A stretch of 32,000 nucleotides of DNA from Sinorhizobium meliloti (GCF_017876815.1 NZ_JAGIOS010000003.1:900001-932000); one strand, 5' to 3'. Shown: positions 2,628 to 9,695, counted from the first letter of the stretch. Notes: generated by a model from the letters alone, not told the origin. Translations and numbers: made by a program.

Positions 2628-4508
2628 ATGTTAGGGATAGTGATGTGTCCGGTTCATGAGACAACGACGCATCCCCTGAAGCGTAAACTCGTAGCGATCC
2701 TTGCGGCGGACGTTGTGGGATATAGCAAACTTGTGGGAGACGACGAGGAGGGTACGCTTACTCTCTTTCACCAATACGCCGAGATTGTCTCTGAATTGGT
2801 CTCATCGCACGGCGGCCGGGTTTTCAATACAGCAGGTGACGCTTTGATGGCCGAGTTCTCGAGTCCCGTCGAGGCAGTCAGAGCTTCGCTGGCGATCCAG
2901 CGGGAAATAGAACGGCAGAATGAAAGCATCGCCAAACACCGCCGGATACACTTCCGGATAGGAATTCACACCGGCGATGTCGTGGTGGAACACGACAACC
3001 TGGAAGGGGACGGTGTAAACATCGCCGCGCGTCTTCAAAGCCTGGCAGATACGGGCGGGATACTGATCTCGGGTGACGTCCACCATCACGTTCTCGGAAA
3101 ACTCGATGCCGCCTTCGAAAGCTTAGGCAGGAAGAGGTTGAAAAACATCTCCGCGCCAGTGCCGGTCTACCGCGTGCTGCCAAAGCCCCGGTCGTCGCTG
3201 CGTCAATTGCTTCGTCGAGCCGATGAGCACCGGACGTTGGCTGTCGTCACGGCGGCAGTCGTCGCGATCGTAACGGCCATCAGTTTAACCTCCTCCCCGA
3301 GCGCTATCTGGAACACCATAGCCAGTAGGATCGAGGGGCTTCCGAAGGAACCTTCGATTGCTGTTTTACCCCTGAGGGCGCTGGGCGACGATTCGCAGGA
3401 GGAATACCTGAGCGATGGCCTCACCACGGACATAACCGGAGAGTTGTCGCGCTTCAAAAACCTGTTTGTGATCGCGAGTAATTCCAGCTTTCCGTATAAG
3501 GACAAGCCGATCGACGTGCAATCTGTCGGACGGGAGCTGGGAGTCCGATATCTTCTTCAGGGAACCTTACAAAGGGATGGTGCTCGTGTCCGGATCAGCG
3601 CGCAGCTGGTCGACGCGCCGAGTCGTCGGCAAATTTGGTCTGATCGATATGACGGTCGGGGCAACGACATCTTTGCGATCCAGGACGACATCATAGAGAC
3701 TGTCGTGGCTAGGCTCGCCGTCCAAGTCAACGTCGCAGAAAGGGAGCGTATCATGCAGAACCCGACCGACAGTGCCGAGGCTTACGATCATTACCTGAGA
3801 GGACGCCAGCAGTTTGACTTGTACTCCCGGGAAGGCAACGCCAGGGCAAAGGAGGAGTTCTCAAGGGCCATCGAGTTGGACCCGAAATTTGCTCGCGCCT
3901 ATTCATGGGCGGGTTACGCCCATCTCGAAGACTACAAGCAAGGATGGGCCGACAGCCCGGACACGGCGGTCAGATTTGCAACCCAGGCCGTCAAAATGGC
4001 TCCGGATGACTACTACACACATTGGACGCTTGCGTCCGTCTACATGGAATTGAAGGATATGGTCGGCGCGCGCAGGGAGTACGACCGAGCTTACGAGCTG
4101 AATGGTAACGATCCTGACCTGCTGGCCGAGAGGGCGGACATGCTGAGCTTCCAAGGCGATCCTGCCAGCGCCATTACCGATATTGAAAGGGCCAAACGCC
4201 TGAATCCGAGTTTTCCGGAGTGGTACCAGTGGTCGCTTGCCTTGGCTCATTTCCAAGACAGGAACTATGATGAGACAATCAGGCTGCTAACCGCGATGTC
4301 TGATCTGCCCAATGAGGCTTATTTGATGCTGGCCATGAGCCAGGCAAGAGTGGGACACTCCCCCTCACATGCCGCAATCATGAGGGATTTGCGCGCTAAG
4401 GAGTATGCGGCGTCCACGCCCCATCGATTATTCAGTTGCGGCGATCTGAGGTTGATCGACGGGCCGTCAAATGAGCTCACCGAAGAGTATCTGACGAGCT
4501 CATTGTGA
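2628..4508 (+). CDS. Class III adenylate cyclase-TPR protein, paralog 2; native to 4402, last 35 codons read into the IS66 left end (chimeric C-terminus)
   Basis: 626-aa ORF. The N-terminus RKLVAILAADVVGYSKLV..GDALMAEF..FRIGIHTGDVV..GDGVNIAARL is a cyclase catalytic domain. A TM segment, a TolB-like segment (SIAVLPLRALGDD..) and TPR-like repeats follow. The native frame ends at ..LRAKE inside the 8-bp target duplication. An alternative ATG at 2643 has AGGGA 6 nt upstream. Confidence 0.85.
   Translation: MLGIVMCPVHETTTHPLKRKLVAILAADVVGYSKLVGDDEEGTLTLFHQYAEIVSELVSSHGGRVFNTAGDALMAEFSSPVEAVRASLAIQREIERQNESIAKHRRIHFRIGIHTGDVVVEHDNLEGDGVNIAARLQSLADTGGILISGDVHHHVLGKLDAAFESLGRKRLKNISAPVPVYRVLPKPRSSLRQLLRRADEHRTLAVVTAAVVAIVTAISLTSSPSAIWNTIASRIEGLPKEPSIAVLPLRALGDDSQEEYLSDGLTTDITGELSRFKNLFVIASNSSFPYKDKPIDVQSVGRELGVRYLLQGTLQRDGARVRISAQLVDAPSRRQIWSDRYDGRGNDIFAIQDDIIETVVARLAVQVNVAERERIMQNPTDSAEAYDHYLRGRQQFDLYSREGNARAKEEFSRAIELDPKFARAYSWAGYAHLEDYKQGWADSPDTAVRFATQAVKMAPDDYYTHWTLASVYMELKDMVGARREYDRAYELNGNDPDLLAERADMLSFQGDPASAITDIERAKRLNPSFPEWYQWSLALAHFQDRNYDETIRLLTAMSDLPNEAYLMLAMSQARVGHSPSHAAIMRDLRAKEYAASTPHRLFSCGDLRLIDGPSNELTEEYLTSSL
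4395..4402. repeat. Left copy of the 8-bp target site duplication GCTAAGGA of the IS66 element
   Basis: Identical octamer immediately outside both IS ends (4395-4402 and 9688-9695). IS66-family elements make 8-bp duplications. Confidence 0.9.
4403..4435. repeat. IS66 terminal inverted repeat, left
   Basis: Matches the reverse complement of 9655-9687 at 22 of 33 positions by my hand alignment, including GTA.GCG.CGTC..CGCCCCAT. Confidence 0.75.
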
Positions 4509-4718
4509 GGCCTGGATGCGAGCGGCATAGGCCCATGGCATCAGGGCATCGATGTCTTTGGCGAGGTGGCCGTTTGCGAGGCGGGTGAAGAGGTTGCACA
4601 GATAGGCGTAGGGCTCAACGCCGTTCATTTTACAAGTGCCGATCAGGCTGGCAAACCGGGCCCAATTGCGGCCCCCTTCATCGTGCCCCGCAAAGAGCGC
4701 ATTGCGGCGGTTCATGGC
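4500..4718 (-). pseudogene. tnpC: IS66 transposase TnpC, 3' fragment (C-terminal 72 aa)
   Basis: MNRRNALFAGHDEGGRNWARFASLIGTCKMNGVEPYAYLCNLFTRLANGH..LMPWAY is the conserved IS66 transposase C-terminus. It is separated from the rest of the gene by the 4719-7302 insert. Confidence 0.9.
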
Positions 4719-4720
4719 CA

Positions 4721-5203
4721 TTGCAAGGTCATTCTACCCATATCGGCGAATATGTGACCATTCATTACCCACATCATCCGCTTTTTGGGAAGCGCGTGAG
4801 ACGTCAGGGCGTCGATCATCGCAAAGGCGGGGCGGTCGCGCACATCGAGACGACGCCCGGTAATGTCATTGTCATTCCGACGTGGATGCTGGATCCGATT
4901 GCCTGTGCGGGCATGGAGATTGGCGAGCCCCGTGCTTCCCTTGAAGCGCTCATTGAACTCGCCAGTCTATTGACCCCTCAAGGTGAGAGGGCACCCTCGT
5001 CAACTGCCAAAGCAGTTGACGAGGAGGTTCCAGATGAAACTGCCAACGCCAATTCCACCCGAGGGTCCGCGCCAGATGATCATGGCGTTCGACTCGGTGA
5101 AGACGCGTGGGATGAGCCCGCGCCAAAGGGAAGCCGCACTGATGGCATTGGCCATGTTGTTGATGGAGGCGGCCTGTGTAGCGGAGAAGGAGGCGCCGCA
5201 TGA
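4721..5203 (+). CDS. Small element-borne protein (orfA); N-terminal ~85 aa look conserved, C-terminal part doubtful
   Basis: Non-ATG start (TTG 4721 or in-frame GTG 4754). VTIHYPHHPLFGKRV..IPTWMLDPIACAGMEIGEPRASLEALIELASLL resembles, from memory, small HPxHPLxG proteins annotated as the Y4bD/Y4pK or DUF5372 type. The family name is unverified. After about 4990 the frame is low-complexity and overlapped by orfB. Confidence 0.5.
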   Translation: MQGHSTHIGEYVTIHYPHHPLFGKRVRRQGVDHRKGGAVAHIETTPGNVIVIPTWMLDPIACAGMEIGEPRASLEALIELASLLTPQGERAPSSTAKAVDEEVPDETANANSTRGSAPDDHGVRLGEDAWDEPAPKGSRTDGIGHVVDGGGLCSGEGGAA

Positions 5204-5213
5204 ACGCGTTTAG
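5034..5213 (+). CDS. Small element-borne protein (orfB), 59 aa
   Basis: ATG preceded by GAGGAGG with a 6-nt spacer. MKLPTPIPPEGPRQMIMAFDSVKTRGMSPRQREAALMALAMLLMEAACVAEKEAPHERV. Hand-counted GC3 is about 73% in this frame versus about 48% in the overlapping orfA frame. The stop overlaps the recombinase start. Confidence 0.5.
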   Translation: MKLPTPIPPEGPRQMIMAFDSVKTRGMSPRQREAALMALAMLLMEAACVAEKEAPHERV

Positions 5214-7275
5214 CCCTCTGCCGCCAGCGCTTCTGAAGCGTAAAGCCGTCGTCTATGTGCGACAATCGAGCCAAAGCCAGGTCATGCAAAATCTCGAGAG
5301 CCAACGGCGCCAATACGATCTTGTGGATGCTGCGCGCCAGCACGGTTTCCGACGGGTCGAGGTGATTGATGATGACCTCGGATTGTCGGCGAGCGGCGCG
5401 GTCGCCCGTCCGGGGTTCGAACGTCTTGTCGCCTGGCTCTGCGCCGGAGACGTCGGCGCCGTTTTGTGTTTCGATGCTTCGCGTCTCGCCCGAAACGGGC
5501 GTGACTGGCATCATTTGCTCGAACTTTGCGGCCTCGTGGACGCCCGCGTCATCGACCAGGACGGCGTCTATAATCCGTGCTCTCCTAATGATCGTTTGCT
5601 TTTGGGCATGAAGGGCACGATCAGCGAGTTCGAGCTTGGCATTATTCGCGCGCGCATGCTCGACGCTGCGCGTGCCAAGGCCAGACGCGGAGAGCTGCGC
5701 ATCAGCGTTCCTATCGGTTATATCTGGTACCGCGATGCGGGCCTTGGTTTCGATCCGGATCTGCGCGTGCAGGAAGCCGTCCGTCTGATCTTCAGCCGGT
5801 TTCGAGAGCTGAGAAGCGGTCGCCAGGTACTGTTGTCGCTGACGGAAGACAAGCTTTGCTTCCCACGTCCGACGGACGGACGCAACACGACGACTTTCGA
5901 CTGGACACCGATCCGATATCGCAATGTCATCTCGGTGCTAAAGAATCCGTTTTACGCTGGCGTTTATGCTTACGGCAAAAGCGAGAAGCGCACCGAGATT
6001 ATCGATGGCCGCGCCCGCAAGACCTATGGCCATGGCAAACCGAAGGAGGAGTGGGAAGTTTTTCTCAAAGATCACCACGACGGTTATATCGAATGGGACG
6101 AATATGAACGCAACCAGGCGCTGCTCGCCGCCAACGCCTATGGGCAAAAGGGCGGTGCAAAATCGGGCCGCGGTGGGCGTGCGCTGCTTTCTGGGCTCCT
6201 TTCCTGCGGTCGTTGCGGGCGGCGCCTGTGCGTCGCCTATACCGGCAAAACGCCACGTCCGGTTTACCGCTGCGAACGCCCCAATTTGATGTTAGGACTC
6301 AATCGATGTCTTGGCTTCGGCGGCCCGCGAATTGACAAAGCGGTTGCCGCGGAGCTTCTGCGCGTAGTCCAGCCGATGGCGATAGAGGCGGCGATGCAAG
6401 CTGAACACATGCAGTCTGAGGCGCGAGCTGAACGCCGCCGCGCCGCTGAACTCGACCTGCAGAAGGCGCAATATGAAGCTGCGCTCGCAGAACGACGCTA
6501 CGCCGCCTGCGATCCCGACAATCGCCTGATCGCGGCAACGCTGGAGAAGAACTGGGAGGTCGCTTTAAAACGCCTGGAGGCCTGCAAGACACGCCTTGAC
6601 GCCGAACAGCTCCCGGATACCCCGGCAAAGCTGCCTGATTTAGATGGCTTGGCGGAAGATCTGCAGGCCGCCTGGAATGCGCCGGGCGTCAGCACGCGGG
6701 CGCGGCAGCGCCTCGCGCGGGCGCTGATCAAGGACATCATCGCTGATGTCGACGAAGAAGCGCGCGACGTCGTCCTGACAATCCATTGGCAGGGTGGTCA
6801 GCACTCGCAACTGCGCGTCAGAAAGCCCAAGACCGGCGAACATGGTTGCAATACGTCCGAAGACGCTCTTGAGGTCATGCGTTCCATGGCTGGAAGATGG
6901 AGCGACAGCGATATCGCAGCCACTCTCAATCGCATGGGCATACGCACAGGCTTTGGCCACACCTGGACGGCTCACCGCGTCTCTTCGATCCGCCGTGTCA
7001 ACGATATTCACGCATACTTTTCTGCCGAAAAGAGCGGCAAATGGCTGACGATGACGGAGGCGGCCACCAAACTCGGCGTGACAAACCACGTCATCCGCAA
7101 CCTGATCAAGGCAAAAATCCTGCCGGCCGAACAAGTCGTGCCCAGAGCGCCTTATCAGATTAAAGCCGTTGATATCGAACGCGAAGATATCATTGAAGCG
7201 ATTAACAATAGACGACGGAAACGCCCATATCGCGACCCTCGGCAAATCGCCCTTCCAATAAATTCAATTACTTAG
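5200..7275 (+). CDS. Large serine recombinase (691 aa)
   Basis: AAGGAGG lies 7 nt upstream. The N-terminal resolvase domain reads KAVVYVRQSSQSQ..RPGFERL..VLCFDASRLARN. A recombinase domain and a zinc ribbon (CGRCGRRLCVAY..YRCERP..RC) follow. Next comes a coiled coil (AELDLQKAQYEAALAERRY..LEKNWEVALKRLE), then a C-terminal HTH-like tail. Confidence 0.95.
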   Translation: MNAFSPLPPALLKRKAVVYVRQSSQSQVMQNLESQRRQYDLVDAARQHGFRRVEVIDDDLGLSASGAVARPGFERLVAWLCAGDVGAVLCFDASRLARNGRDWHHLLELCGLVDARVIDQDGVYNPCSPNDRLLLGMKGTISEFELGIIRARMLDAARAKARRGELRISVPIGYIWYRDAGLGFDPDLRVQEAVRLIFSRFRELRSGRQVLLSLTEDKLCFPRPTDGRNTTTFDWTPIRYRNVISVLKNPFYAGVYAYGKSEKRTEIIDGRARKTYGHGKPKEEWEVFLKDHHDGYIEWDEYERNQALLAANAYGQKGGAKSGRGGRALLSGLLSCGRCGRRLCVAYTGKTPRPVYRCERPNLMLGLNRCLGFGGPRIDKAVAAELLRVVQPMAIEAAMQAEHMQSEARAERRRAAELDLQKAQYEAALAERRYAACDPDNRLIAATLEKNWEVALKRLEACKTRLDAEQLPDTPAKLPDLDGLAEDLQAAWNAPGVSTRARQRLARALIKDIIADVDEEARDVVLTIHWQGGQHSQLRVRKPKTGEHGCNTSEDALEVMRSMAGRWSDSDIAATLNRMGIRTGFGHTWTAHRVSSIRRVNDIHAYFSAEKSGKWLTMTEAATKLGVTNHVIRNLIKAKILPAEQVVPRAPYQIKAVDIEREDIIEAINNRRRKRPYRDPRQIALPINSIT

Positions 7276-7302
7276 AAAGGGGGTGCATAATGACTCATGT
7301 CC

Positions 7303-8739
7303 GGCGGGTCGGCGGATCGCGTTTTCCACCAGGTTGGAGTCGATATCGACGTGGCCGTCGTCCAGGTACAGCCGGAAGCCGTCCTGCCGCGTTAGCATAT
7401 AGGCCAGGGCTTTTCCGAGGTCAGACTTGCGTGAGATGCGCTTGGCTTGCGCTGCCAGCCAGGTGAAGAACGCGTCCACCAGCGGGAGGGACAGCTCCTG
7501 TCGAACTGCCCGGCGATGTTCGGGATCTGAGCCACGGATGCTGTCTTCGATCTTGTAGAGCGCGGCGATCCGCACCAGCGCCTCGTCGACGATGGGCGAT
7601 CCACTCTTTGGCGTGGCCTTGATCAGCTTTCTGCGCCCGTGCGCCCAACAGAAAGCCAGCCTCAAGGGATCGCCACCCACCCGGTCCGACGTGGCGAGGT
7701 GAGAGTAACCACCGTAGGCATCCACTTGGATTGTCCCGTTAAACCCGTCGAGGATTTCAGCGGCATATTCGCCTTTACGCCCGGGCCGGTAATGGAACAC
7801 CACGCCTGGCGGCGCAGAGCCATTCCAGCCGCGATCGTCACGCAACACGGCCCATAGATAACCGGTCTTCGTTTTGCCTCGCCCCGGATCAAGCACCGGA
7901 GCCGTTGTCTCGTCGACATAAAGCCGCGTGCTTTCCCACAGCAGCCGTTTGGCCATATGGTCGACCACCGGCGCGATCGCAGCACCCGTCCTGCCCATCC
8001 AATCGGCCAGGACGGTGCGGTCTATCGGCACCCCGTGTCGCGCCATGACCTCGGCCTGCCGGTTGAGCGGCATATGTTCGGAATGCTTGGAGACGGCAAT
8101 CTCAGCCAGAAGGGCTTCGGTCGGCCAGCTCCCTTCTAAGAGATGCGCCGGCGCTCTGGCCTGGACGATGCCCGTTCGACCCTTGGGGCAGGCGTATTTC
8201 GGGCGGATCGTGACGATCACCTCGTAGCGCGCCGGAATCCGGTCGAGCCGTTCCGTCCGGTCTTCGCCGATCCGGACCATGTTGCCGCAACCGCAGGGAC
8301 AAACGATGCTCTCAGGCTCGATCACCCGCTCGACCCGCGGCAAATGTTCGGGCAGTGCACGGGCCTTACGCTCCTTGCGAGGAGCGACTTTTTCCGGATC
8401 AGATGCGCTGGCTTCGATCTTTTTCTCGACGGCGGCAATCCGCGCCTGTGTTTCGGCAATTGCCGTTTCAAGGTCTTCCAGCGCCAGTTCCATCTGCGCC
8501 GGATCGAGCTTTTCCGATTTCGGCCCGAACTTCGTGCGCCGATAGTCGTGAACCTGACCTTCAAGCTTCTCGACCAGTTCCTTCAGCTCGGCGATGAACG
8601 CATCCTTTTCGGCAACCACAGCCTGCTCATGCTGACGTGCAGCACGCTCGACCGACAGCTCGAACTGCATCGCCGCAAACGCCTTCACCACCTCGGGCGG
8701 AAGGTTCGGAAACAGGCTGAGATCAAGGGGTGACGACAT
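7303..8739 (-). pseudogene. tnpC: IS66 transposase TnpC, 5' fragment (residues 1-479)
   Basis: ORF 7264-8739. It has the zinc-finger CPCGCG..YACPKG and the DDE region ..LYVDETTAPVL..GYLWAV..QVDAYGGY..CWAHGRRK... The native sequence ends ..DSNLVENAIRRPA at 7303. Twelve insert-derived codons (GHESLCTPFLSN*) then follow. Confidence 0.9.
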
Positions 8740-8801
8740 GCGGCCTTATAGCAAGGCAGCACAAAAAAGCCAAATAAAACAATGCAAAGGCAGCCGTATA
8801 T

Positions 8802-9155
8802 TTACCCTGCCGCCGACGGCGCGGTCACCCGTTGCGCCATGACCCGTCGCCAATCAAGACCTTCGAACAAAGCTTCGTATTGCCCCCTGGAAAGACGCAT
8901 CGTCCCATCCTGCACCTTGGGCCAGGCAAAGCTTCCATGTTCAAGAATTTTGTAGGTTAGCACCATGCCGGTGCCATCCCATACCAGGATTTTCAGACGA
9001 TCACCGCGCTTCGACCGGAAGATCACCGTCACCCCGGAATGCGGGTCGAGCTTCAACTCGGTCTGCATCATCAGAGCCAGCGCCTGATGCCCACAGCGGA
9101 AGTCCACCGGCCGCGTTGCAACCAGGATCGGCAGTCGTTGGCCCGCGACGATCAT
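8802..9155 (-). CDS. tnpB: IS66 Orf2 (TnpB) accessory protein
   Basis: 117 aa. PILVATRPVDFRCGHQALALMMQTELKLDPHSGVTVIFRSKRGDRLKILVWDGTGMVLTYKILE is typical IS66 Orf2. The start overlaps the tnpA stop (ATGA). Confidence 0.9.
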   Translation of the reverse strand: MIVAGQRLPILVATRPVDFRCGHQALALMMQTELKLDPHSGVTVIFRSKRGDRLKILVWDGTGMVLTYKILEHGSFAWPKVQDGTMRLSRGQYEALFEGLDWRRVMAQRVTAPSAAG

Positions 9156-9598
9156 GCCGTCCCTCGAATGGCGCGCACCAGGGCCGCCACACGTTCAACC
9201 GATACATCGCCGGGAACCCGCATCACAACGTCCGGGCCGATCGTGAGCGTCAAGACTGACGAAACCGCCTCCCGCAGTTTCAGCGGCGCCAAAACATTCA
9301 CAGCCTCGCTCGGCTCTGCCGCAATCGCCAAAGGCACAAATGCAGGCTCGGCATCGCCGCTCTCCGATAGGCCCGGCATAGACTCAAAAGGCAGCGCCAA
9401 AATGCCCTCGCGCGCTTGCCGACGCCAGAAGGAAAGCTGGTGCGGAACAACGTCATGACGGCGCGCGACATCAACAACTCGAACACCCGGCTCAAGGCTC
9501 TCCGCGACAATCCGCGCCTTCACATCATCGGGCCAACGCCGGTTTCCGCGGCGCGGCTCGACAACTTCGTAGCGCCCAACAAATCCATCATCTGCCAT
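9152..9598 (-). CDS. tnpA: IS66 Orf1 (TnpA), helix-turn-helix protein
   Basis: RRWPDDVKARIVAESLEPGVRVVDVARRHDVVPHQLSFWRRQAREG is the transposase-8/IS3-like HTH. Start chosen at MADDGF (9598) rather than the ORF-track start at 9634. Confidence 0.85.
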   Translation of the reverse strand: MADDGFVGRYEVVEPRRGNRRWPDDVKARIVAESLEPGVRVVDVARRHDVVPHQLSFWRRQAREGILALPFESMPGLSESGDAEPAFVPLAIAAEPSEAVNVLAPLKLREAVSSVLTLTIGPDVVMRVPGDVSVERVAALVRAIRGTA

Positions 9599-9654
9599 GC
9601 AAATCTCCAGATAGTCCTGGAAACCTTCTCGCACGCCCAGCCAGCCTCAAAATA

Positions 9655-9687
9655 CAGCCTATCCAATGGGGCGGAGACGGCGCTTAC
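9655..9687. repeat. IS66 terminal inverted repeat, right
   Basis: Ends ..GGCGCTTAC at 9687. Its reverse complement is GTAAGCGCC... Confidence 0.75.
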
Positions 9688-9695
9688 GCTAAGGA
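9688..9695. repeat. Right copy of the 8-bp target site duplication GCTAAGGA
   Basis: Identical to 4395-4402. Confidence 0.9.

Follow-up and report, generated by a model that had tools for sequence, protein, structure and literature searches.

A cargo-free large serine recombinase element in Sinorhizobium that splits IS66 transposase genes at one conserved codon

How does a gene for a large serine recombinase (LSR), with hardly anything beside it, come to lie inside the transposase gene of an insertion sequence (IS), and is this a chance landing or a way of life? The question is raised by a stretch of 32,000 nt from Sinorhizobium meliloti (GCF_017876815.1, NZ_JAGIOS010000003.1:900001-932000), hereafter the window, whose positions serve as coordinates throughout. 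In this window the tnpC gene of an IS66 family element is interrupted by a 2.6-kb insert, which an earlier note, made from the sequence, had described as one mobile element parasitising another. Comparison with related loci indicates that the insert is very probably an autonomous, cargo-free element, whose LSR would join a dyad-symmetric attachment site of the element (attP) to a conserved attachment site in tnpC (attB). The insert and its host are laid out as follows.

4719-7303, plus strand: inserted element proper, cargo-free (orfA, orfB, recombinase), 2,585 bp, or 2,587 bp with one core
4717-4718: crossover core GC at the left junction (attL), its spacing to the conserved arm being constant
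7304-7305: crossover core GC at the right junction (attR), co-varying with the left copy across the 60 loci described below
4728-4739, plus strand: left terminal inverted-repeat arm (P'), GTCATTCTACCC; consensus within the family TCATTCTGCCCA
7281-7294, plus strand: right terminal inverted-repeat arm (P), GGGTGCATAATGAC
7303-8739, minus strand: N-terminal part of tnpC, 479 codons, ending ..DSNLVENAIRRPA (..ENAIRRPA); Pfam DDE_Tnp_IS66 1.7e-89, LZ_Tnp_IS66 and zf-IS66
4500-4718, minus strand: C-terminal fragment of tnpC, 72 codons, MNRRNALFAGHDEGGRNWARF.. to the stop codon (MNRRNALFAG...); Pfam DDE_Tnp_IS66_C 7.4e-19
8802-9155, minus strand: tnpB of IS66; Pfam TnpB_IS66 9.5e-33
9152-9634, minus strand: tnpA of IS66 (HTH_Tnp_1); Pfam 1.6e-20
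4403-9687, minus strand: host IS, IS66 family, ISRm14 type, with bounds taken from alignment to other copies
4395-4402: left copy of the 8-bp target site duplication (TSD) of the host IS, GCTAAGGA; the same octamer abuts both IS ends
9688-9695: right copy of this TSD, GCTAAGGA

The host is a regular IS66 element, with the gene order tnpA-tnpB-tnpC, inverted repeats starting GTAAGCG and an 8-bp target duplication. Its length is 2,698 bp, or 5,285 bp when the insert is counted, and its terminal inverted repeats, GTATGCGGCGTCCACGCCCCAT and GTAAGCGCCGTCTCCGCCCCAT, are of the IS66 type (GTATGCGG.../GTAAGCGC...). Intact copies carry the annotation 'IS66-like element ISRm14 family transposase', and the SM11 copy is flanked by another TSD, TTCCTAAC. 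The N-terminal part of tnpC covers positions 2-265 of the 284 of DDE_Tnp_IS66 and now runs through 12 element-encoded codons (GHESLCTPFLSN and a stop) to 7264, while the C-terminal part corresponds to DDE_Tnp_IS66_C, and its Ala codon GCC overlaps the crossover core. Both the reading of the open reading frames (ORFs) and Pfam bear out the broken frame, including the 12 foreign codons, as it had been described before.

Removal of the insert together with one core restores tnpC (...ENAIRRPAMNRRNALFAG...). In S. medicae, this IS is present in an uninterrupted copy (locus L003, 2381-2520) that reads ..ENAIRRPAMNRRNALFAG.. with a single GCC, and the reconstructed 400-nt joint was found in 131 plasmid records of PLSDB, contiguously in 110 of them (Sinorhizobium 76, Rhizobium 31, Agrobacterium 14). 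Element DNA occurred in only 19 PLSDB plasmid records. With 110 uninterrupted against 19 occupied records, the insertion is a presence/absence polymorphism in which the occupied state is the minority. The seamless joint proposed earlier for a deletion of 2,587 bp is thus read across in S. medicae and in 110 plasmids, and these intact relatives, which read ..RRPAMNRRNALFAG.. across the joint, represent empty sites.

Scanning 185,579 species genomes for relatives of the recombinase yielded 80 related loci at 36-86% identity, in Alpha- and Betaproteobacteria, Acidobacteriota and Planctomycetota. When the reconstructed TnpC of the window was compared with these by tblastn, the flanking fragments broke at residues 476-482 in approximately 40 loci, at a TnpC identity of 27-57%, and approximately 54 of the 68 loci with readable flanks were interrupted where an IS66 tnpC encodes the counterpart of RRP[A]MNRR. 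The loci were distributed over the following classes.

About 43 of 80: IS66 tnpC, split at this codon, with the recombinase in antisense
9 of 80: IS66 tnpC, split at this codon, with the recombinase in the sense of tnpC
2 of 80: IS66 tnpC, rearranged, with two C-parts
5 of 80: IS91-family transposase genes
4 of 80: a conserved 219-aa plasmid gene
5 of 80: unclear
12 of 80: no usable flank

Thirty-six distinct IS66 attB sequences align on one codon, with the consensus gtcGAgcgcgC.AT.CGccC..T.-GC-c.TcGG.cG.aA.AAcTggcT.TT, and encode the motif ..E(R/N)x(I/L)R(P/G)x[A]x(G/N)R(K/R)N(W/Y)LF.., which in the window reads ..ENAIRRP[A]MNRR... Relatives do occupy the same tnpC position, with a shared 2-bp core, in line with the earlier proposal of an element living on IS66 landing pads; the targets are not confined to IS66, but include IS91 transposase genes and a plasmid gene. 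The IS91-targeting loci (L068, L069, L074, L079 and L084; recombinase identity 36-45%) come from Planctomycetota and alphaproteobacterial metagenome-assembled genomes and have the same architecture, including the split orfA described below, with the break at WVVYAKPP[F]GGPE in hosts recognised by Y2_Tnp (6.9e-68) and Zn_Tnp_IS91. The closest relatives in the genome scan, at 76% identity (L009-L011 and L062, Rhodobacterales), lie not in IS66 but in the 219-aa gene, which is split at ..VTEALRDL[A]RWLYRQLE... This gene is present in 107 plasmid records, belongs to PHROG 5162, and is annotated as hypothetical or as 'antitoxin of toxin-antitoxin stability system'. In many draft assemblies the element makes up a contig of its own, 2.55-2.75 kb long and ending at the core or close to it, as expected of a repeat with several different flanks.

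Two loci (L027 and L048, and probably also L013) have tnpC C-parts, inverted, on both sides of the element, which looks like an inversion or exchange between two oppositely inserted copies.

The exact exchange point follows from the junctions, both of which were located in 60 loci with CATTCTGCCCAT as left and GCAYAATGA as right anchor. The GGC repeated at the two junctions had been taken as a short serine recombinase core. A short core it is, although of 2 bp (GC) and not 3: other copies of the element read cGC at the left junction, only 2 bp are common to both junctions, and the third base of the repeat is due to chance, because the flanking G equals the last base of the element. The core consists of the two bases 10-11 nt inside each conserved arm and is identical left and right within a copy. 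GC/GC is the majority among the 60 loci, AC/AC, with Val (GTN) as target codon, occurs in L028, L029, L031, L047 and L050; GT/GT, with Thr (ACN), in L024, L060 and L077; and AA/AA, with Phe (TTY), in the IS91 clade. LSRs cut with a 2-bp stagger, and such matching, co-varying junction dinucleotides are the signature of a 2-bp staggered cut by serine recombinases. The core-to-core distance was 2,556-2,609 bp in 55 of the 60 loci, and this constant size marks the family as one without cargo.

At 5,051 bp, the element of L077 (Mesorhizobium sp. AR07 plasmid) exceeds the usual length of approximately 2,600 bp, with approximately 2.4 kb inserted inside it.

The element-proximal arms form an imperfect inverted repeat at 4728-4739 and 7281-7294, as had been noticed before, and this repeat is conserved across the family. 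Written in the sense of tnpC, the predicted attP is AATGAC-CTTGCAATG-GC-CGGACATGA-GTCATT, a dyad of 6+9+2+9+6 with the core at its centre, and this geometry is conserved across the family as well. On the target side, the R-P-x-A-x-G-R codons spell CGnCCnnnnGCnnnnGGnCG, a skeleton that is self-complementary about GC, and the measured symmetry of attB peaks at offsets 5, 6, 9 and 11.

The central dinucleotide alone reportedly sets the polarity of integration by Bxb1, as described by Ghosh, Kim and Hatfull in 2003. Since the GC core is palindromic, and attB partly so, insertion in either orientation is predicted, and both orientations were found within three sub-clades with identical attP arms: in Acidobacteriota (L041 and L066 versus L038, L044 and L070), in Azospirillum (L053, L057 and L058 versus L014), and in sphingomonads (L054 and L056 versus L077).

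Within Sinorhizobium, a copy in ml59 pSymB (L002, CP140948.1) matches the element of the window at 100.0% over 2,584 nt and lies in a different IS66 type, with the flanking tnpC reading ..ERAIRPQT|AITRKNSLFAG... The identical recombinase protein was present at the same codon in at least five IS66 types in Sinorhizobium. Plasmid pSmeSM11c of SM11 alone has three copies with an identical recombinase, each in a different IS66 type, with the junctions ..RALRPIA|AIGRKNWLF.., ..RDIRIFA|ATGRKSWLF.. and ..AIRRPA|AMNRRNALF.., and two further host types elsewhere read RPQA|AITRKNS and RPQA|ALNRKNA; every junction of these five has GC at both ends. Together, these copies point to recent, repeated, site-specific insertion in Sinorhizobium. 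Identical composites of IS and element were also found at different sites with different 8-bp TSDs, which is compatible with the element being carried along when the IS moves, and equally explained by separate insertions into identical IS copies.

Several side observations concern these same IS66 copies. The right junction of L002 has GT where the left has GC, so that tnpC reads RPQT and not RPQA; the probable cause is a point mutation, and excision would be blocked by it. The same IS66 remnant is crowded by reverse-transcriptase genes of group II introns and by ISRm16 (IS4-like) (L002, 1-2171 and 6863-8026), a case of nested mobile elements. At L005 (8372-10470, CP050513.1), three consecutive tyrosine recombinase genes, resembling a recombinase-in-trio, adjoin tnpB of the LSR-hosting IS66, which suggests that the IS66 elements there are struck by several kinds of site-specific element.

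The insert holds three plus-strand ORFs, 4721-5203 (160 aa), 4983-5213 (76 aa) and 5200-7275 (691 aa), and these lie 2 nt and 27 nt from its ends, exactly as first described. Codon-position variability, computed over 65 aligned elements, showed third-position wobble in the frame of orfA at 4721-4982, of orfB at 5121-5199, and of the recombinase from 5200 onward, and refined the ORFs to the following genes.

5200-7275, plus strand: LSR, 691 aa, with a C-terminal excisionase-like helix-turn-helix (HTH), from Pfam
5034-5213, plus strand: orfB, approximately 45-60 aa; the mechanical ORF starts at 4983, and the end lies 11 nt inside the recombinase gene
4719-5203, plus strand: body of orfA; the conserved domain spans approximately the first 90-95 codons, to about 5000, and is conserved in 73 loci
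7277-7292, plus strand: Shine-Dalgarno sequence of orfA, AAGGGGG (7277-7283), and ATG (7290-7292), at the right end of the element

The recombinase matches the Pfam domains Resolvase (PF00239, 6.9e-24, residues 16-165), Recombinase (PF07508, 3e-17), Zn_ribbon_recom (PF13408, 1.3e-06) and HTH_17 (1.2e-04), and belongs with the integrases of PHROG 95 (4e-61). YVRQS was invariant in the 14 family members examined and the four zinc-ribbon cysteines were conserved, which agrees with the earlier assignment of a 691-aa serine recombinase with a YVRQSS nucleophile motif and a zinc ribbon. Residues 395-470 or so (AMQAEHMQSEARAERRRAAELDLQKAQYEAALAERR...EKNWEVALKRLEACKTRLDAE) look helical and heptad-like when judged by eye. 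Comparison with the PDB gave E values of about 1e-4, for the catalytic domain only; the best NCBIfam model was XisF (NF041201), at 79.9 bits against a cut-off of 375, the IS607 model (NF033518) scored 16.9 bits against a cut-off of 110, and Pfam gave no match to DUF4368. By its domains and by the core dinucleotide, the protein is a predicted LSR, with marginal similarity to any solved or curated member. The Pfam scan found no transposase gene inside the insert, and an Rfam scan of the window returned nothing.

The small genes are conserved along with the recombinase. OrfB has the motif FD...L.GMS..QR..A...LA.LLMEAAG...DDER, which is kept even in the IS91-targeting clade, and appears in GenBank copies as a 59/60-aa hypothetical protein. 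OrfA had no match in Pfam, NCBIfam or PHROGs, yet its profile found 1,593 clusters (50% identity) among 1.84 billion representative proteins. A first AlphaFold2 model was poor (mean predicted local distance difference test, pLDDT, 52); a model based on 96 sequences reached a pLDDT of 79.8 and showed an SH3/KOW-like barrel with a helix. Current annotation of such loci gives a 'recombinase family protein' and IS66 pseudogene fragments, with orfA usually uncalled.

The layout of orfA is unusual. In the integrated element, the orfA body at the left end has no start of its own save a TTG at 4721. At the opposite end, the Shine-Dalgarno sequence begins 2 nt after the stop codon of the recombinase (7273-7275), and in all of the approximately 60 loci with both ends, the right-end GGAGGTGCACAATGA gives a Shine-Dalgarno sequence (GGAGG conserved) and an ATG that reads in frame, through attP, into the orfA body at the left end (M-x4-8-HSAHIGQEVEVHYRWHPLYGRRV...), yielding joined ORFs of 132-173 aa. 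Since attP falls at codons 5-6 of orfA, integration parts the gene from its translation start, and a complete, translatable orfA would thus be expected only in the excised circle, although not absolutely, given the targets discussed below. When metagenomes were searched with a degenerate attP pattern, two soil contigs were found with an unsplit attP, in which right end, core and orfA are contiguous: L090 (1983-2026), with the recombinase C-terminus, attP and orfA, and L089 (534-577), with the right end, attP, orfA, orfB and the start of the recombinase. As evidence for a circle this joined form is suggestive, and it could also stem from tandem or replicon-borne copies. The attP pattern had no match in IMG/VR viral contigs.

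Together, these features suggest the following cycle. The LSR would recombine attP with attB, the coding DNA of the conserved IS66 TnpC motif, by a 2-bp staggered cut at positions 1 and 2 of the Ala codon (GC), or of its variants Val (GT) and Thr (AC). Integration would leave one core copy at each junction and split tnpC, and precise excision would restore it. In the predicted circle, 7303 would be joined via GC to 4719 (...GCATAATGACTCATGTCCG-GC-CATTGCAAGGTCATTCT...), uniting the Shine-Dalgarno sequence and ATG of orfA with its body. OrfA, as an SH3-like barrel protein, and/or OrfB may then adjust, in response to the state of the element, in which direction recombination runs or how the recombinase is expressed. 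Multicopy, horizontally spreading ISs would serve as landing pads, and the entered copy would be inactivated.

A number of observations weigh against this account and have to be set beside it. Excision, the free circle and recombinase activity are deduced from sequence. The two unsplit contigs, L089 and L090, each have an unrelated IS nearby (IS1182-like or IS3-like). Mismatched cores occur in L002 (GC/GT), L033 (AC/GC), L049 (GT/AC) and L015 (GC/GA), for which we assume point mutations in immobilised copies. The orientations are uneven, with approximately 43 antisense and 9 sense insertions, though a palindromic core might predict a ratio of about 1:1; phylogenetic non-independence or selection could account for this excess. 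A sigma-70 consensus scan found no plus-strand promoter in the element, and the Foldseek comparison of OrfA with the PDB was uninformative, returning generic SH3/KOW/Tudor/PsaE barrels with a best E of 0.11. Finally, IS66 targets encoding K-S-W supply an in-frame ATG for orfA through their antisense strand (TCATGG; CCATGA strand), as in L101 (5001-5501) and L102 (126-635), which are integrated copies with a flank-derived orfA ATG, without an obvious upstream Shine-Dalgarno sequence. This target-derived ATG is the reason that many OrfA proteins in databases begin with MTFCRGQSPGHSAH. Such full-length database homologues (MTFCRGQSPGHSAH...) were considered as evidence for an unsplit attP and rejected, as the L101 and L102 contigs are integrated copies.

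Could the insert instead be a fixed passenger, an internal module acquired once by a single IS66 lineage and diverging jointly with it? Nearly all copies do lie inside IS66 elements, and identical composites occur at several sites with their own 8-bp TSDs. However, empty sites are abundant, one replicon has the element in three IS66 hosts, both orientations exist, and recombinase and host TnpC identities are uncorrelated (Spearman 0.15, p=0.16, 91 pairs). The recombinases of L024 and L060 are 100% identical in host TnpCs of 45.7% identity, and L028 and L029 are two copies on one chromosome in different IS66 types. The element is thus not a fixed part of a larger conserved gene arrangement, a possibility that the earlier note had singled out as fatal to its proposal, and we consider the passenger explanation, with a vanishingly small chance of being right, refuted by the empty sites, host variety, orientation and lack of co-divergence. 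Somewhat more can be said for a domesticated switch, a regulated rearrangement that keeps the IS66 transposase off until excision, comparable to XisF in fdxN, SpoIVCA in skin and the 'active lysogeny' prophages. XisF is the best NCBIfam match, though far under the cut-off, excision would restore tnpC exactly, and the insertion adjoins the most conserved catalytic block, a clean on/off position. Yet few ISRm14 copies are occupied (19 plasmid records, against 110 with the joint intact), and at least five unrelated IS66 types, IS91 and a plasmid gene as hosts, without co-divergence with the host IS, amount to the behaviour of an autonomous parasite, so that we regard a switch as very unlikely.

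Another possibility is that a GC-rich, partly palindromic site of approximately 40 bp was simply chanced upon in tnpC, without any adaptation to mobile elements, multicopy ISs being prominent in the sample merely through their abundance. This shares its mechanism with the autonomous element proposed here and differs in its evolutionary reading. The R-P-x-A-x-G-R codons by themselves dictate the attB skeleton CGnCCnnnnGCnnnnGGnCG, and LSRs often target conserved coding sequences (PMC10083194). Three diverged clades that all reside in mobile-element genes (IS66, IS91 and the plasmid gene) are unlikely to arise by chance, however, and the AC and GT cores track the Val and Thr target codons, which argues for continuing adaptation to IS66 diversity; coincidence therefore seems very unlikely to us. 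The last alternative, in which GGC is the 3-bp TSD of a DDE-type or other transposition, draws on the three bases repeated at the junctions of the window copy. In other copies only 2 bp are shared, and this dinucleotide is central, symmetric and co-varying; moreover, the insert has no transposase gene, and 36 distinct targets are all entered at exactly the same codon. The junction table of the 60 loci refutes such an insertion, and its probability is practically nil.

How, then, does the autonomous LSR element compare with known systems? It resembles Tn4451/Tn4453 (TnpX) and Tn5397 (TndX) in its lone LSR, its predicted excision as a circle and reinsertion, and its duplicated 2-bp core. Reportedly, the circle joint of Tn4451 creates the promoter of tnpX (Lyras and Rood, in 2000); with an expression signal that exists only in the circle, there the tnpX promoter and here the orfA translation start, Tn4451 is the nearest known precedent, although no joint promoter like that of Tn4451 was found in the sigma-70 consensus scan. 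Tn4451 and Tn5397 differ in their cargo (catP; tetM and conjugation genes), their GA core and their relaxed choice of target. An LSR survey (PMC10083194) places their recombinases in the DUF4368 'multi-targeting' clade, while the present recombinase has no DUF4368, a target that is invariant to the codon, and orfA and orfB beside it.

The phage integrases (phiC31, Bxb1, A118, TP901-1 and SprA of SPbeta) share the resolvase domain, recombinase domain and zinc ribbon, the dyad-symmetric att sites of approximately 50 bp in which the central dinucleotide sets polarity, and often the conserved coding targets. The present element is unlike them in being 2.6 kb long, without phage genes and with an extra C-terminal HTH, and in its palindromic core, both orientations, mobile-element target and marginal sequence similarity. 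It is not a phage integrase module either, since 55 of the 60 loci measure 2,556-2,609 bp and hold only orfA, orfB and the LSR. The IS607 family is likewise of small IS size, with a serine recombinase, a circular form, as predicted here, and no DDE-type terminal duplications, but its transposase of approximately 200 aa has an N-terminal HTH and little specificity, and is usually accompanied by TnpB, in contrast to the 691-aa LSR found here.

Interruption of a gene by an LSR element, with precise excision restoring it, is also known from XisF (fdxN) and SpoIVCA (skin). XisF needs two small accessory proteins, XisH and XisI, a pair that is reminiscent of OrfA and OrfB. However, these elements are tens of kb long, single-copy, chromosomally fixed and tied to differentiation, whereas the present one is 2.6 kb, multicopy and polymorphic. 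In lifestyle, the closest parallels are elements that prefer to land in other mobile elements, which offers them many sites and passive horizontal spread: RmInt1, inside ISRm2011-2 and in the same host genus; the 'res hunters' Tn5053/Tn402; IS1111-attC elements; and the phage-inducible chromosomal islands (PICIs) that are helper-embedded in prophage late genes (PMC10111431). They rely on retrohoming, on resolvase- or seeker-RNA-guided DDE enzymes or on tyrosine integrases, and none uses an LSR aimed at the catalytic-motif codons of a transposase.

No published description of an IS66- or IS91-targeting LSR mini-element was found in the full-text literature, with subscription journals and ISfinder lying outside the search, and the combination is absent from the accessible portions of the text and supplements of the LSR survey cited above (PMC10083194). 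The high-quality LSR set of that survey is limited to 400-650 aa (PMC10083194), so that the 691-aa recombinase would be dropped. IS size, lack of cargo, strict specificity for a transposase-motif codon and a gene split by attP thus look like a new, undescribed combination. A wider reading, to which we give slightly less than an even chance, is that these elements may form a large undescribed class of cargo-free, IS-sized LSR elements, with OrfA as marker protein and the present element as the first to be recognised, that are obligate parasites of mobile elements, with clades retargeted to the catalytic-motif codons of IS66 and IS91 and to the plasmid gene. In this class the split orfA would be a sensor of the integrated or excised state and, jointly with OrfB, would set the direction of recombination, and a classical phage-type directionality factor would be absent.

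Two further observations in the window concern the flanks of the insertions. An outward promoter-like site, TGGTCA-18-TAGAAT, is present in the left arm of the element (4760-4731, minus strand), and an ATG arises at the boundary of element and core (4721-4719, minus strand), heading 4721-4500. Both could allow expression of a 73-aa TnpC C-fragment comprising the DDE_Tnp_IS66_C domain. Upstream of the host IS, a 626-aa ORF (2628-4508, plus strand) overlaps the IS, which starts at 4403, by 106 nt, so its natural C-terminus was replaced by the IS insertion.

For the biology of these elements, the finding means that other transposable elements serve as the 'chromosome' of a site-specific element, a new layer in the ecology of mobile elements. 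The layout is also unusual in regulatory terms, as attP lies inside a gene and one gene is thus predicted to be complete only in the circle. With a predicted attP of approximately 50 bp, dozens of natural attB variants and GC, AC, GT and AA cores, the family would be a minimal natural LSR system, and the two small conserved accessory genes beside the LSR offer material for studying the evolution of LSR specificity and directionality, and for genome-engineering toolkits. An entered IS copy is inactivated, maybe reversibly, and IS66 and IS91 elements are widespread on plasmids for symbiosis, virulence and resistance. The LSR elements could damp or modulate IS66 and IS91 transposition, and would travel wherever those ISs go.

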